Source of the DNA: Candidatus Woesebacteria bacterium
GTDB lineage: Bacteria; Patescibacteriota; Microgenomatia; UBA8517
Reading direction: 5' to 3'
DNA: 40,364 nucleotides
Assembly: GCA_027347685.1 (NCBI GenBank)
Contig: DAIEQM010000033.1
Span: forward strand, 1-40,364
Every line of letters starts with the position of its first letter. The first letter of the stretch is position 1. The position numbers were made by a program, and so were the translations under genes. Of the stretch, positions 29,075 to 33,983 are shown one piece after another. The notes below the pieces were generated by a model that made no database searches, was not told the DNA's origin, and was given only the letters and a program-made list of their open reading frames with translations.

Positions 29075-29204
29075 GCTTTACTATCCCGAATAGCAAACGT
29101 GCTTTACTATCCCAAATAGCAAACTTGCTTTACTATCCCGAATAGCAGATTTACTTTACTTTCGTAGAAAGCAAGTTTACTTGACTATCCCAGGTGGAGA
29201 ATAG
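29075..29204 (-). repeat. five tandem 26-bp units (three near-identical, two degenerate), each a stem-loop in the sense RNA
   Basis: Units start at 29075, 29101, 29127, 29153 and 29179. The plus-strand consensus is gctttactatcccgaatagcaaacgt. The last unit overlaps the final codons of the PilX-like gene. Confidence 0.9.
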
Positions 29205-30106
29205 AGCGACGATTGAAACATACTTGGGATTTCAGGATACAGTGAATACACTTGTACTTTGCGTGTAGAAGTTCCAGACGTTCCCAGAGAGTCTACTTGA
29301 CGACCCTGATCTGGTAAATCTGAGGGGAGGTTCGTGACACCAAAAAGAGTGGGGGTTGTATTGTACAAAAGGAGAGCAGTAAGAGACTTTAAGCGTTTTC
29401 CATTTATTGATCCATTTGGAATTGCGAGATCGGTAAGCAGGTTTACGGTAACTTTGTTAGCAAGTGGAGTACCGTCGATGGTACAGGAGCCAGAACCTGT
29501 ATTGGTACTTATTCCGTTCGTGATAAAGCGATTTTGAGATGCGCGAGAACCGTTCGAATCGTAGGCAATGTATGCATATTTTCGAACACCTCCACCAGCC
29601 GGGTCTTCATACAAAAGTGCAAGGGCAATTGCTGGCTGTGTTCCACTGCCGGTTTTTCCCCAACAGACATCAATTGTTTGTCCTTGAAAACATTTATTAC
29701 CTCCGGTGCATGTAAGGCTGTTGTCGGTATCATGTGATGAAAGCCACACCGTAGCGCTGTCTCCAGCTGAAAGTTCTACCGGATATAAATATGAGCGAGG
29801 GTTTTGAGGAAATGCAGTCAAACTTGCAGTGTATGTAGAGCCAGACGAACCAACAGGCACCGGAGTAGGTGAGGGAACAAGGGGAAGGGATTCAATTGAA
29901 TTATTGAGGGTATTTTCAACGCCTGCTTCAGCAGCAGAAAAAGCTCGGAGAGATTCTTCACCTTTTGTACTCGTTGACACATCGGTAATTGAACGGGAGA
30001 CAACGGAAAGAGCAATAGTGAGGACTACTCCCACAGAGAGAAGAACCATAAGCAAAGCCTGACCATTCTGGCTGAATAGTGCTTGTCCTGATGCGTTTTT
30101 CTTCAT
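29177..30106 (-). CDS. PilX-like large minor pilin or tip-associated protein
   Basis: GQALLMVLLSVGVVLTIALSVVSRS...SLRAFSAAEAGVE resembles the PilX N-terminal domain. There is no canonical G/FxxxE site. The start is ATG 30106, or alternatively GTG 30124. Confidence 0.6.
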   Translation of the reverse strand: MKKNASGQALFSQNGQALLMVLLSVGVVLTIALSVVSRSITDVSTSTKGEESLRAFSAAEAGVENTLNNSIESLPLVPSPTPVPVGSSGSTYTASLTAFPQNPRSYLYPVELSAGDSATVWLSSHDTDNSLTCTGGNKCFQGQTIDVCWGKTGSGTQPAIALALLYEDPAGGGVRKYAYIAYDSNGSRASQNRFITNGISTNTGSGSCTIDGTPLANKVTVNLLTDLAIPNGSINGKRLKSLTALLLYNTTPTLFGVTNLPSDLPDQGRQVDSLGTSGTSTRKVQVYSLYPEIPSMFQSSLYSPPGIVK

Positions 30107-30113
30107 ATATTTT

Positions 30114-30635
30114 TCAGTATACACGTAATATTACTCTTCTCGAAATAGTCGCAAAACTGGTGTCGGTCGCGGCGGCATTTGCTGCGGTTCCTGCAAAGAC
30201 AAAATCAATAATCGGTGGATTGTATACGCCATTTGATGTGCAAGTGAAAGTGCAGGTAGTGAGATTTATATCAGAACTTGTTATGCGCGCACCAGATGTG
30301 CCATCACTTAAGTACTGATTGGCCCCACCACTACAGGTGTAGCTTCCAGTCGTTCCTGTTTGGGTTGTGTAGCTGATACTTGCATGGCTCGCGCCATCAC
30401 ATGCACTCGTAATCAATTTGGCGTTTCGTACGTTTCGTTCAACCAGTGAAGCAGCAAAGTCTAAATTGTCACGAACTCTACTTGAGGCATCAACTTTTCT
30501 CGTACCTCTAAATGACTGTAGTGTACTTTGCGTTACAATAAAAGCTAAAAGCGCGAACAAAAACATAACCACAAGCATCTCAATGATGGAAAAACCGTGT
30601 AAATTCTTACCCTTAGTGGTATGTGTATTTTTCAT
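30114..30635 (-). CDS. minor pilin with prepilin-type N-terminal cleavage/methylation domain
   Basis: MKNTHTTKGKNLHG/FSIIEMLVVMFLFALLAF. Confidence 0.75.
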   Translation of the reverse strand: MKNTHTTKGKNLHGFSIIEMLVVMFLFALLAFIVTQSTLQSFRGTRKVDASSRVRDNLDFAASLVERNVRNAKLITSACDGASHASISYTTQTGTTGSYTCSGGANQYLSDGTSGARITSSDINLTTCTFTCTSNGVYNPPIIDFVFAGTAANAAATDTSFATISRRVILRVY

Positions 30636-31084: not shown

Positions 31085-31599
31085 TGTATTTCTCCAGAGG
31101 CAGACACCGAAATTGTTTTTGTTTGCGAAACCTGATCGCTCGACACAATAAGTGTTAGGTTGTTTGCTGGAGAAACATCAGTACCAAGTTCAAGCGGCTT
31201 AAACAAAAGACGAACTGTTCCACCCGAAGGAACTCTATTAATAACAAGAAATATATTGCTCGGAAGTGTCACCGACTTCACCACGGCAGATGCTGTCGCA
31301 CAAAGGGCAGAAATGGTATACGCGGTCGATTTAGCCCCACCTCCGGTGGCAGCTGCTGCAAAATCTATAGCATATCCCTGAAACGTTCCGGTGCAACCCG
31401 CTACACGCTTACCTCCTGATGCGTCTGCGTGTACCGTTCGAAGCTCGCCATTTAATGTTCGTGCATAATTATCAATTTCTTGGCGACGTCCAAAATCACG
31501 GAAGTTTGCAACTCCAACACCAGCCGCGAGTCCAATGATTACCATAACAATAAGAAGCTCTAAGAGGGTAAAGCCGGTTGACCTTGAGTAATTCGTCAT
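31081..31599 (-). CDS. GspH/FimT-like minor pilin
   Basis: MTNYSRSTG/FTLLELLIVMVIIGLAAGVGVANFRDFGRRQE. ATG 31599 forms an ATGA overlap with the upstream pilin stop. The track start 31656 is an extension. Confidence 0.65.
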   Translation of the reverse strand: MTNYSRSTGFTLLELLIVMVIIGLAAGVGVANFRDFGRRQEIDNYARTLNGELRTVHADASGGKRVAGCTGTFQGYAIDFAAAATGGGAKSTAYTISALCATASAVVKSVTLPSNIFLVINRVPSGGTVRLLFKPLELGTDVSPANNLTLIVSSDQVSQTKTISVSASGEIQ

Positions 31600-32099
31600 G
31601 GATTTACTGCTTTGTAATAGCACGACACCGAACCACAACTTGAGGATCCTCCACATGTTACCGTAGCTGCTCCTCCGGCAGGCTTTTCAAGTGTGGAGCA
31701 AATTTCGTATCCCGTGCCTCCTCCAGTTTGATTATATTTGTATGTTCCACTACCAGGGTCTGTTGGAACTTTTTGCATATACGTATAAGTCGTAAGGCAT
31801 TTACCAGAAGCATTTTTTCCATTCATAGCTCCTCCAAAGGTAAAACTACCAGTTCCAGAATTGGGCGGATACGAGTCACAATCCGAACGATAAATTTCAA
31901 GTGCAGAGCGAACAGTTTCAATATCACTTTTACGTCTTTGGTCGCGAGCACTTTCGCGCGCTCCCGCAAGTCCAAAAACGGAGATTGCCATAAGGAGCAC
32001 AATAATTGCAATAACAACAAGAAGTTCAATAAGGGTAAAGCCCTCAGAACCTCTGAACGTAGAGTTCATGAGGGTGAAGCCAGAATTTTTTTTCATCAT
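31596..32099 (-). CDS. type IV pilin (paralog B) with an unusually long duplicated-motif leader
   Basis: MMKKNSGFTLMNSTFRGSEG/FTLIELLVVIAIIVLLMAISVFGLAGARESARDQRRKSDI. The track start 32207 is an extension into the upstream gene. Confidence 0.8.
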   Translation of the reverse strand: MMKKNSGFTLMNSTFRGSEGFTLIELLVVIAIIVLLMAISVFGLAGARESARDQRRKSDIETVRSALEIYRSDCDSYPPNSGTGSFTFGGAMNGKNASGKCLTTYTYMQKVPTDPGSGTYKYNQTGGGTGYEICSTLEKPAGGAATVTCGGSSSCGSVSCYYKAVNP

Positions 32100-32103
32100 A
32101 GTA

Positions 32104-32583
32104 TTATGGACAATTACCATTACCTCCGGTAAAACCTGCAGCCGCTTTTGTTCCTGCATAGCCAGTAGAACAGACGTAAAATACCTGAGCTGGAACTGGC
32201 TTTTCAAGGGTTGCCCAAATTACATATTTGGTTCCACTTCCATCAGTAACATACTGGTACGAGTTTACCGAAGTCGGATCGTTTGGACAGGTTATGTTAC
32301 CAAGTGGGTTGGAAGCACCACACATAGAACTTGGGTTTACGGCAGATGCTTTGATTGGAAACACCCCGTTGTTTGCATTGGCATATATTTCAATCGCATT
32401 CTGGTATTGATGAATGTCAGACTGACGTTGTGCATCACGTGCTGCTGCTTTACTTCCATTAAAACTGAGAATAGCGAAAGACGCCATAACCGCAATGATA
32501 GCCACTACAACAAGAAGCTCAATGATGGTGAAGCCAGCAGAATCTCTGTAGTCAGAGTTCATGATGGTGAAACCTCTTTTCAT
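32104..32583 (-). CDS. type IV pilin (paralog A) with an unusually long duplicated-motif leader
   Basis: MKRGFTIMNSDYRDSAG/FTIIELLVVVAIIAVMASFAILSFNGSKAAARDAQRQSDI. Confidence 0.8.
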   Translation of the reverse strand: MKRGFTIMNSDYRDSAGFTIIELLVVVAIIAVMASFAILSFNGSKAAARDAQRQSDIHQYQNAIEIYANANNGVFPIKASAVNPSSMCGASNPLGNITCPNDPTSVNSYQYVTDGSGTKYVIWATLEKPVPAQVFYVCSTGYAGTKAAAGFTGGNGNCP

Positions 32584-32598
32584 ACTTTCAGACTAACA
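32584..32598 (-). promoter_or_regulatory. extended -10 TGTTAGTCT 6 nt before pilin ATG 32583
   Basis: The minus strand reads TGTTAGTCTgaaagtATG. No SD. Confidence 0.4.
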
Positions 32599-32637
32599 CA
32601 AAAAGAAAAGCAATGTAAAACAAGTTTACGTTTTACA
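32598..32637 (-). terminator. weak AT-rich hairpin plus T tract
   Basis: TGTAAAAC, 8-nt loop, GTTTTACA, followed on the minus strand by ATTGCTTTTCTTTTTG. Confidence 0.4.
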
Positions 32638-32668
32638 ACGCAAAACAAGTGTGCCTATTCAACGAAAA

Positions 32669-33199
32669 CTATTTGCGAGGAGTTGGCGAGGGAGAGGGGA
32701 GCGGGTCATAGAGTACTGGACGAGCTCCACTTGTGCGTCCTGCATTACAATCGACGTCTCCACAAGAGATTTTCATGAGCACGATGTTTTTGTCGTATTC
32801 ATCTTCGTAACTTCCTTCAAGCGCCGCGTATATTTGAAAGTTATCACCATTGCTTCGATATACAAACTTTCGTCCTTTATCAAAGTATGGATCGCGGGGG
32901 AGCGGGTCAAAGAATGGACTATTAATTTTGTTGTCACCCCATTCACACGGAGCAAAAACCCAATCTCCTTGCTTATTCTTAAAGCCATTACAGCCAATAA
33001 TTTTTCCATCTTCTGTAGCGAGTGGGAAGGTACCGATAGCTTTCTTAAAATCGGTAAGCCTGGATTCAATATCACCAAGTTCATTTTTGCGAGAGACGTC
33101 GCGACTCTTCCGATATGAAGCGAACAAATTTACCACTGTTACTACGGCAATAACAGTTAACACAATGGTAACAAAACTAAATTCTTTTTTACTAAACAT
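32669..33199 (-). CDS. pilin-like protein with a degenerate class III signal (no G at -1, no E at +5)
   Basis: MFSKKEFSFVTIVLTVIAVVTVVNLFASYRKSRDVSRKNELGDIESRL. It has a pilin-like helix and a pilin-like RD..R...I block, but EFSFVT replaces GFTLIE. The tail is Pro-rich (PLPSPSPTPRK). Confidence 0.55.
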   Translation of the reverse strand: MFSKKEFSFVTIVLTVIAVVTVVNLFASYRKSRDVSRKNELGDIESRLTDFKKAIGTFPLATEDGKIIGCNGFKNKQGDWVFAPCEWGDNKINSPFFDPLPRDPYFDKGRKFVYRSNGDNFQIYAALEGSYEDEYDKNIVLMKISCGDVDCNAGRTSGARPVLYDPLPSPSPTPRK

Positions 33200-33200
33200 A

Positions 33201-33983
33201 TTAAAAGTAAGGTGTTAGGTATTGTATCAAACTGGCACCAAATAGAGCACATACCCAAAAAGAAACAATCATAAACGGGCCGAATGGTACACGGGTTTTT
33301 TTTGTAGCACGACCACTTACTAACAGTGCGACACCCACAATAGAACCAATGATAAAGCTCACAAAAATCCAAACAATGCTTACCGGAAACCCAAGTAAAA
33401 ACCCAAGCGGAAGTGCGAGTTTAACATCTCCAAGCCCCATACCCCGACCGCGTGTCGCTAAGTTTAGTATCAAAAAAAACATACTGCTTACAAAGGCCAC
33501 CAACAGCCGCTGCCACATGTTTGTATCAGATGAAAACAGAACAAAAAGGAAACTAATCAAAAATAACAGAAACACAAAGCTATCGGGGATAATCATTTCT
33601 TCCATATCGGTTACAAAAATACCAATGGAAATAAACCCCACAAAACAAAATAATACAATTCCGGCAATGCCAAGGGAAGGAAGCCATGGAAATATTTCAA
33701 AAAACATCGAATACAACAAATATACCGATACAAACGTAAGTGCTGTTGTAAATTCTATTAATGGATAGCGAGCAGAAATTTTTTTGTGACAATGGCGACA
33801 TTTCCCCTGAAGTAAGAGATACGAGAAGAGTGGAATATTGTCATACCAGGAGATGGGCTTTTTGCAGGAGTCACAAAAAGACCTGCCTTTTGCAATAGAC
33901 ACGTCGTGCATCATTCTCCAGGTAAGCGCAGACAAGAATGATCCAAACACAAGGCCTGTTACAAACAAAAATAAAACGATCAT
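33201..33983 (-). CDS. pilD: prepilin peptidase (A24 family) PilD
   Basis: CDSCKKPISWYDNIPLFSYLLLQGKCRHCHKKISARYPLIE (Cys box), polytopic, and GMGLGDVKL as the second Asp motif. Confidence 0.9.
   Translation of the reverse strand: MIVLFLFVTGLVFGSFLSALTWRMMHDVSIAKGRSFCDSCKKPISWYDNIPLFSYLLLQGKCRHCHKKISARYPLIEFTTALTFVSVYLLYSMFFEIFPWLPSLGIAGIVLFCFVGFISIGIFVTDMEEMIIPDSFVFLLFLISFLFVLFSSDTNMWQRLLVAFVSSMFFLILNLATRGRGMGLGDVKLALPLGFLLGFPVSIVWIFVSFIIGSIVGVALLVSGRATKKTRVPFGPFMIVSFWVCALFGASLIQYLTPYF

Follow-up and report, generated by a model that had tools for sequence, protein, structure and literature searches.

The 40,364-nucleotide (nt) stretch analysed here (the window) is contig DAIEQM010000033.1 of an uncultivated Candidatus Woesebacteria bacterium (assembly GCA_027347685.1; 798,727 base pairs (bp), or 0.8 Mb, with 42% G+C). 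It carries a type IV pilus operon with genes for PilC, a major-pilin candidate, the prepilin peptidase PilD, several minor pilins, a PilX-like protein and PilM. Two adjacent paralogous prepilin genes of this operon, here called A and B, encode long leaders in which the tetrapeptide at the cleavage site occurs twice. Protein A begins MKR-GFTI-MNSDYRDSA-GFTI-IELLVV, and protein B begins MMKKNS-GFTL-MNSTFRGSE-GFTL-IELLVV. The upstream copy of the tetrapeptide is called the decoy below, the residues between the two copies the spacer, and the extra 13-residue (39-nt) unit the module or cassette. The features of the locus are as follows.

32104..32583 (-): prepilin gene A, an open reading frame (ORF) of 159 amino acids (aa)
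Leader of A: 17 aa, MKRGFTIMNSDYRDSAG
32590..32595 (-): TAGTCT, 6 nt ahead of the start codon of A, kept in both same-genus genomes
32563..32574 (-): upstream (decoy) G-F-T-I codons of A, GGT TTC ACC ATC, at the putative ancestral cleavage-site position; MKR-GFT aligns with the whole ortholog N-terminus
32536..32562 (-): spacer of A, 27 nt, ATG AAC TCT GAC TAC AGA GAT TCT GCT, encoding MNSDYRDSA
Stem in the spacer of A: GAACTCTG / CAGAG(A)TTC
32518..32535 (-): predicted real prepilin site of A, G/FTIIE, then the hydrophobic helix; GGC TTC ACC ATC at 32535-32524, then ATT GAG
32527..32574 (-): imperfect 48-nt hairpin of A, 16 base pairs, loop ACTA at 32549-32552; covers decoy, spacer and real site
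31596..32099 (-): prepilin gene B, GspG/T2SSG-like, 167 aa, with Pfam N_methyl and T2SSG matches
Leader of B: 20 aa, MMKKNSGFTLMNSTFRGSEG
32070..32081 (-): upstream (decoy) G-F-T-L codons of B, GGC TTC ACC CTC
32043..32069 (-): spacer of B, 27 nt, ATG AAC TCT ACG TTC AGA GGT TCT GAG, encoding MNSTFRGSE
32025..32042 (-): predicted real prepilin site of B, G/FTLIE; GGC TTT ACC CTT at 32042-32031, then ATT GAA
32041..32074 (-): inverted repeat of B, CCCTCATGAACTCT - ACGTTC - AGAGGTTCTGAGGG, with 14-nt arms complementary at 11/14 positions
33201..33983 (-): prepilin peptidase PilD, expected to remove the leaders; Pfam A24_N_bact (PF06750) and Peptidase_A24 (PF01478)

A and B are predicted to be ordinary type IV (GspG-like) prepilins, with G(-1), F(+1), E(+5) and a hydrophobic helix of ~20 residues all present. 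In A, the site lies after G17 and before FTIIELLVVVAIIAVMASFAIL (PF07963 E-value 2.6e-7, N_methyl match at residues 13-37; TIGR02532 26.1 bits, cut-off 16.3). In B, it lies after G20 and before FTLIELLVVIAIIVLLMAISVF (PF07963 E-value 8.3e-8; TIGR02532 25.6 bits, same cut-off). B starts 4 nt past the stop codon of A, with a first ATG at 32099 and a second at 32096. Both genes are encoded together with the prepilin peptidase and the pilus assembly machinery, and the minus-strand block that holds PilD also contains PilC-like, PilM-like and further pilin ORFs. Near-identical DNA is found in mine-drainage, wastewater and aquatic metagenomes, and the names of the relatives include Candidatus Woesebacteria and Candidatus Microgenomatus (Patescibacteria).

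The doubled motif is real in both genes. As the preliminary description of this DNA had it, the GFT[IL] tetrapeptides stand exactly 13 codons (39 nt) apart in A and B, and the two copies use different codons, with one synonymous difference in A (GGT versus GGC) and two in B (TTC/CTC versus TTT/CTT). Its statement that the decoy lacks E5 and the hydrophobic helix context also agrees with the domain matches, since PF07963 (Pfam N_methyl) and TIGR02532 match only the downstream site in both genes and never the upstream copy. A repeat finder independently returned family D1, with four copies of 14 nt spaced 39 nt apart in each gene. The pairing of the motifs is not due to chance. A DNA pattern that ignores the reading frame (GFTx, 15-45 nt, GFTxxE) yields 15 matches in 11 of 125 genomes of the family, while the reversed pattern used as a control yields 0, and 18 of 21 matches in the family and a phylum sample are in frame (p = 3e-6). 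In a whole-protein similarity search, an exact G-F-T-[LIVMF] occurs in 8 of the 222 leaders of A and B homologs, compared with a shuffling expectation of 0.03.

In the closest relatives of both genes, the leader is conventional. Nine proteins with 53-85% identity to A, its closest homologs, all open with M-[KR]-x-GFT[LI]-x-ELL and lack the 13-aa segment. The close homologs of B, with identities of up to 88%, have no such segment either; the closest, P0106 (88% identity), starts ..MIKKNA-GFTLIELL and is encoded on the same 1825-nt contig as P0001, the closest homolog of A. Two same-genus genomes with conserved gene order carry no extra segment in either ortholog. Its absence from the orthologs of both genes marks the 13-residue segment as a later insertion, in which the 39 nt following the ancestral MKR-GFTI would be new. 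The decoy and its 13-residue spacing, which the preliminary description had put forward for alignment across homologs, are thus not found in the closest homologs of A and B, where the upstream motif is missing. Contigs of four sequencing runs from three studies all carry both inserts without gaps, which indicates that the insert is fixed in the sampled populations; no presence/absence polymorphism of the kind expected from phase variation was seen in these contigs, which drop rare variants.

The start codon of A can be placed by the same comparison. In each of the two same-genus genomes only one start is possible, and ATG 32583 with its preceding 20 nt is orthologous to it; all three genomes of the genus share the series of TGTTAGTCT, 6 nt and start codon ahead of A. 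Because the upstream region and the start are conserved, and relatives have no other possible start, ATG 32583 is taken as the ancestral start of A and MKR-GFTI as its ancestral N-terminus up to residue +3. The preliminary description had seen a -10 box 6 nt before this ATG as favouring the long form of A. A consensus scan finds no sigma-70-like promoter ahead of ATG 32583 and so does not confirm the box, but TAGTCT and its 6-nt spacing are conserved. Of the two options it had set side by side, alternative starts or long leaders with a second motif, the long leader is the better supported: the long form of A is likely translated, given that its upstream ATG is orthologous.

The region ahead of A shows some further features. 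The arrangement of TAGTCT, 6 nt and start codon is present in three genomes of the genus, with a GTG start in G001, and is compatible with the idea of a leaderless promoter. A 24-nt direct repeat with 75% identical copies lies at 32611-32659, upstream of A; within it, an 8-nt loop separates the arms of a perfect 8-bp inverted repeat (TGTAAAAC/GTTTTACA). Contigs of two other samples have a further 24-nt copy behind 32635, a copy-number polymorphism upstream of A.

The inserted DNA is palindromic and resembles the codons of the cleavage site itself. In B, the arms CCCTCATGAACTCT and AGAGGTTCTGAGGG, 14 nt each with 6 nt between them (pair I1 of the repeat finder), show a complementarity (11/14) that is rare among random genomic 14-mers (p < 5e-5). 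Two 1-nt gaps suffice to align the 9 nt that follow the B decoy (ATGAACTCT) with the 11 nt that follow the B real site (ATTGAACTTCT; p = 0.0035); the loop of 6 nt and a linker of 4 nt are not accounted for by forward or reverse copies. The residues MNS in B can be read as the I-E-L-L codon stretch out of frame, and RGSE as its reverse complement. A forward copy with two 1-nt gaps and a reverse-complement arm would thus explain both peptides at the level of DNA. For the conserved internal methionine, the best explanation is that a 1-nt deletion shifted the I4 codon ATT (ATTGAACTT to ATGAACT), and related modules have I, V, R, T or L at this position. The A hairpin has 16 bp over 48 nt and a folding energy of -14.7 kcal/mol (z = -3.03 against dinucleotide shuffles), and the B module folds with z = -2.36. 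In A, 11-nt direct repeats (TTCACCATCAT) stand on either side of the palindromic core. The insert is thus a hairpin-forming palindrome of 39 nt placed in frame, and its new sequence, which is absent from the orthologs, is a reverse-complement copy of neighbouring sequence, as in template switching.

The same build is seen in other genera, and the canonical cleavage-site codons form a quasi-palindrome of their own, TTCA-N7-TGAA, which spans the F-T..I-E codons. In relatives, 23 modules have a mean fold z of -1.83, with 43% below -2, as opposed to -0.05 and 3% for 94 pilin 5' regions without a module (Mann-Whitney p = 8.5e-8). A further 29 independent period-13 units from a scan of species genomes average z = -1.80. 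In other genera, reverse-complemented G-F-T-L codons form the spacer: ATGAATCC is the reverse complement of GGNTTCAT and pairs with GGNTTCA, and GAGGGCAAAGCT is that of GGCTTTACCCTC. Spacers made of frameshifted or reverse-complement G-F-T-L-I-E-L-L codons would account for their likeness across genera (M-N-x-T-S, E-G-K-A, S-x-x-K) without any peptide function, and the copying of cleavage codons would account for the replacement of Glu5 in such modules. A peptide function was considered as the cause of the likeness between spacers and rejected, as M-N-x-T-S and E-G-K-A are frameshifted or reverse-complement readings of universal codons.

The cassettes of A and B are related to one another. Their spacers are homologous, with 20 of 27 nt identical, and the first mature codons of A also resemble those of its neighbour. 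A reads ELLVV (CTT CTT GTT GTA), like B (CTT CTT GTT GTT), while the nine A homologs read ELLIV, with the codons TTA CTG ATC GTA and TTA CTC ATC GTA in the two same-genus genomes. The resemblance of these codons to B rather than to the A homologs suggests that gene conversion from a B-like gene extended over the insert and the first mature codons of A. The preliminary description took the codon differences between copies as a sign of protein-level retention after the paralogs split. The claim as stated is not supported by the comparison, in which orthologs of both genes lack the segment, motif and spacer appear dictated by DNA copies, and the copy in A looks acquired from a B-like gene. A comparable pattern occurs in G060, where three to four paralogs have modules; from the spacer to the real site they are almost the same (pS, the synonymous divergence, 0-0.17), and the decoy codons differ (pS 0.6-1.3).

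No further copy of the cassette was found in the 798,727-bp assembly, and no donor of the spacer in the genome or in the same-genus loci. The cassette is thus not a multi-copy family dispersed over unrelated sites. A 14-nt match on contig C46 was considered as a donor and rejected, as it is not a palindrome. Metagenome contigs gave only 15 unrelated chance matches to the cassette pattern, and a related-locus search of them for pilin A relatives gave nothing.

A third gene of the operon, the PilX-like gene at 29177-30124 (-), also has an insert. At 30053-30088, it has gained eight residues in frame that recreate the gene's own junction motif, MKKNAS-GQAL-FSQN-GQAL-LMVLL, where the orthologs in both same-genus genomes read ..S-GQAL-LMVLL. 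The ancestral copy has the ortholog codons GGA CAA GCA CTA, and the inserted copy, GGT CAG GCT TTG, differs at all four third positions. Four other module-bearing genomes have PilX-like genes without such an insert.

Doubled leaders recur beyond this genome. The architecture is found in 7 of 81 genera and about 8% of the genomes of the family, with one to three extra units, as in MKKN-GFTL-INPTSESKTK-GFTL-MNPTSEGKAK-GFTLIELL (G014) and MRKTAH-GFTL-MNRNFKRKSK-GFTL-MKQVSVREL-GFTLIELL (G132). In another family of the same class, G439 carries four copies at L039:1336-1635 (+), GFTF-LPRKKAEPLLKSSNK-GFTF-SRSEKAEPLLKSSNK-GFTF-SRSEKAEPLLKSSNK-GFTLIEIL, and its two 57-nt units with identical 19-residue repeats point to a recent tandem expansion. 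About 8% of B homologs in a large protein collection carry the unit, and a leader-profile search of 1.84 billion representatives places 59 decoy-bearing proteins in its top 150. A period-13 scan of 185,579 species genomes gives ~30 plausible cases, most of them in Patescibacteria and a few elsewhere (Dyella sp. EPa41, Phycisphaerae and Rariglobus). The presence of the module is patchy among orthologs within genera, and the upstream copy is always of the gene's own site type (GFTI with GFTI, GFTL with GFTL, GYTL with GYTL, AFTL with AFTL). These counts are a lower bound, as the DNA patterns missed A(-1) sites (AFTLIELL) such as that of L043 (G002) and several homologs.

A separate form of the doubled motif, GFTL-IELPVVRKR-GFTLIELLVV, occurs in proteins labelled Saccharibacteria or Patescibacteria, with up to three copies and many clusters that share <50% identity with one another. 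Examples are loci L078, L093 and L119 and proteins P0258, P0297, P0301, P0309, P0313, P0333, P0341 and P0371. Its decoy keeps Glu5 and has a proline at the helix start, and its folding is not significant (z = -0.2 to -1.3). The genome scan places the GFTL-IELPVVRKR-GFTLIELL family in Saccharibacteria. Minor pilins of two other genomes (L048 and L049 of G130 and G133, genus g89) read MK-GYTL-MKDFNRTER-GYTLIEIL, with a matching GYTL decoy, and the homologous minor pilin of G136 can start only at the methionine after a decayed 'GSTL'. Outside Patescibacteria, 'GFTM' matches were set aside: 21 of 69 period-13 matches are a chance G-F-T reading of the 5' untranslated region, with a mean z of +0.33. 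At these 21 loci (L059-L125), the 9 nt before the true start read G-F-T, 10 codons ahead of the real site. They look like chance combined with the GG bias of the Shine-Dalgarno sequence, and are a trap for motif-based searches.

We consider it somewhat probable that the doubled leaders are a tolerated footprint of template-switch-type mutation, in which a 39-nt palindromic cassette was made from the cleavage site's own codons and copied between the paralogs, leaving the decoy as a by-product and not a designed element. Template switching is known to create reverse-complement repeats and hairpins (PMC8794818, PMC7202029). A short switch during DNA synthesis at the quasi-palindrome TTCA-N7-TGAA could have given the layout, which would run from a forward copy of G-F-T-L-I-E-L-L with single-base deletions through a short loop and a reverse-complement copy to the original site. 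The event most likely took place in gene B, and gene conversion would then have carried the cassette and the first mature codons from B into A. Translation would still begin at the ancestral upstream ATG, as orthology indicates for A and as we assume for B. The 13 extra residues, with the second G-F-T-L/I, would sit in the cytoplasmic leader, and PilD would cut once, at the membrane-proximal G/F beside the hydrophobic helix. The mature pilin would then be unchanged and the insert tolerated, presumably as a neutral change. That either ATG gives the same mature product is probably why this site accumulates such inserts.

Several observations weigh against this account. The seven spacer differences between A and B all (7/7) avoid the 14 stem positions (p = 0.002), which hints at a constraint on the hairpin. 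Decoys occur intact or are missing altogether, with near-misses at the chance level (2 observed, 1.5 expected). Non-synonymous divergence of the decoy (pN) is 0 between species with near-saturated synonymous sites (pS 0.3-0.9), which could mean selection on the motif. The exact switch points are not reconstructable, the closest DNA compared being that of the same-genus genomes, and the insert of the PilX-like gene does not qualify as a hairpin, as its folding is not significant (z = -1.17). Decoys were ascertained by their motif, which biases the pN figure and most decoy tests. Strong purifying selection on the decoy was rejected as a proven claim on account of these motif-ascertained tests, degenerate decoys (GLKL, AFTL, GFTQ and DFTL occur) and synonymous saturation. 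Compared with the codons of their own real sites, decoys are at synonymous saturation, with 41 identical and 46 synonymous codons and a chance identity of 0.44. A strain variant has a synonymous change in the decoy and a non-synonymous change in the B spacer, in the loop.

The upstream motif could instead be functional, with PilD recognising the upstream G-F-T-L/I as a second cleavage site or pseudo-substrate and thereby tuning the rate or order of pilin processing, or releasing a small N-methylated cytoplasmic peptide. Both G(-1) and F(+1), which class III signal peptidases require, are retained in the decoy, and the lack of non-synonymous change between species (pN = 0 at pS 0.3-0.9) fits this idea, as does the finding that exact decoys are far above chance and near-misses are not. 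Within one operon, three genes have such a copy, and the decoy matches its own site type in every gene, with four synonymous differences between the GQAL copies of the PilX-like gene. This match comes free from local copying, however, close relatives manage without the motif, degenerate decoys are tolerated, and reverse-complement DNA, not peptide function, accounts for the spacer residues. Mutagenesis in Pseudomonas aeruginosa shows that cleavage also needs the adjacent hydrophobic segment, and the upstream motif has no such segment next to it. The decoy would in addition lie 13 residues from the PilD active site, which is at the membrane face beside the helix (PMC10191384), and polar residues follow it. 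We regard a functional decoy as unlikely. A function of the nucleic-acid hairpin itself, in which translation, mRNA stability or pilin-gene recombination is under the control of a stem-loop within the first 50 coding nt and the peptide is incidental, seems improbable as well. Folding is significant in A, B and modules across Patescibacteria, the A/B substitutions avoid the stem (p = 0.002), the strain-level change in the B spacer falls in the loop, and the same operon has another hairpin repeat (inverted repeat I5). Against this, the spacers alone form weak stems of -7.1 (A) and -4.4 (B) kcal/mol, and the 111-116-nt mRNA starts fold no better than shuffles (z = 0.01 and -1.27), so that only the module is significant. 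There is no Rfam match in 31400-32900, the element is absent from relatives, and template switching alone can maintain stems without selection (PMC8794818).

The internal ATG (at 32562 in A and 32069 in B) might also be the main translation start; this would give a conventional 10-residue leader and leave M-K-R-GFTI as an untranslated relic. AAC, a common second codon in bacteria, follows the internal ATG, and in A this ATG stands 10 nt after AAGAGG. The G136 minor pilin with its single possible start behind the decayed decoy points the same way, and the mature pilin is the same from either ATG. The upstream start of A and its flank are nevertheless conserved with orthologs that have no other start, and AAGAGG consists of the K-R-G codons, which the orthologs have too. 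The internal ATG of B has no Shine-Dalgarno sequence, though most genes of the operon lack one anyway. The short leaders would carry a net charge of -1 (A) and 0 (B) compared with +1 and +2 for the long forms, and in relatives the residue at the internal methionine is often I, V, R, T or L. An internal start thus appears quite improbable, and peptides spanning MKRGFTIMNSDYR or MMKKNSGFTLMNSTFR would mark the long-leader form and speak against it. Very improbable, in our estimate, is a miniature mobile element, a tiny hairpin transposon that targets the conserved cleavage-site codons. The direct repeats of TTCACCATCAT that flank the palindromic core in A and the use of one insertion point in many genes and lineages would suit such an element. 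It has no other copy in the 0.8-Mb genome, its pattern gives only the 15 unrelated chance matches in metagenome contigs, its arms consist of the target's own sequence, and 39 nt is too small for known miniature inverted-repeat transposable elements.

The doubled leaders share features with several known systems. No description of a prepilin leader with a repeated cleavage motif was found in the literature searched, in line with the preliminary description, which knew of no pilin leader of this architecture. Long class III (prepilin) signal peptides are known from type IVb pilins and from the type IVa major pilins of Streptococcus sanguinis (PMC10191384). The leaders of A and B resemble them in being hydrophilic, in exceeding the usual 5-10 residues, in ending with a glycine before a hydrophobic helix with Glu5, and in their expected removal by a PilD-type aspartic peptidase at the cytoplasmic face. 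They differ in that the extra length is a discrete 13-residue module with a palindromic coding sequence; it repeats the cleavage tetrapeptide, and close orthologs lack it. A and B are not type IVb pilins: their long leaders (17 and 20 aa) arise only through the insert, with ortholog leaders of ~4 to 15 residues. Residue +1 is Phe in both, B matches GspG/T2SSG, and the locus has T4a-like PilM and PilC.

At the level of DNA, Rickettsia palindromic elements (RPEs) are palindromic repeats of ~150 bp that lie in frame in protein-coding genes, in multiple copies dispersed over unrelated genes (PMC10969869). Like RPEs, the cassette of A and B is hairpin-forming DNA placed in frame in an ORF, where it adds a peptide that is tolerated. 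Unlike RPEs, it is 39 nt long, is built from the codons of the host site and occurs only in two adjacent paralogs. The described cases of quasipalindrome-associated template-switch mutation mostly substitute bases or convert short tracts inside inverted repeats that already exist (PMC7202029; PMC8794818; PMC8604942). The cassette resembles these in that a reverse-complement copy of adjacent sequence, made in what would be one step, forms a hairpin; such switching can act in coding DNA and can keep stems paired. The cassette differs from described template switches in being a net 39-nt in-frame insertion, in also duplicating forward sequence, and in recurring at one protein motif across a phylum.

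Prepilin leaders serve pilin annotation and the prediction of processing. Recurrent and hitherto undescribed in-frame palindromic cassettes that duplicate a peptidase motif can mislead start-codon calls and cleavage-site predictors. They also provide a natural substrate for the question of whether PilD needs the adjacent helix to cut, and what would be a clean example of template-switch-type mutation making new peptide sequence at a defined protein motif. A more far-reaching reading, which we hold to be doubtful, is that the cleavage-site codons are a phylum-wide safe harbour for self-copying hairpin cassettes, whose repeats are read by PilD (through sequential trimming or pseudo-substrate feedback) or whose hairpins act as a switch on pilin expression. 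In Patescibacteria, type IV pili play a central part in host attachment and DNA uptake, and if the repeats were functional in this way, they would be a new control point and regulatory layer of type IV pilus biogenesis in these ultra-small bacteria.

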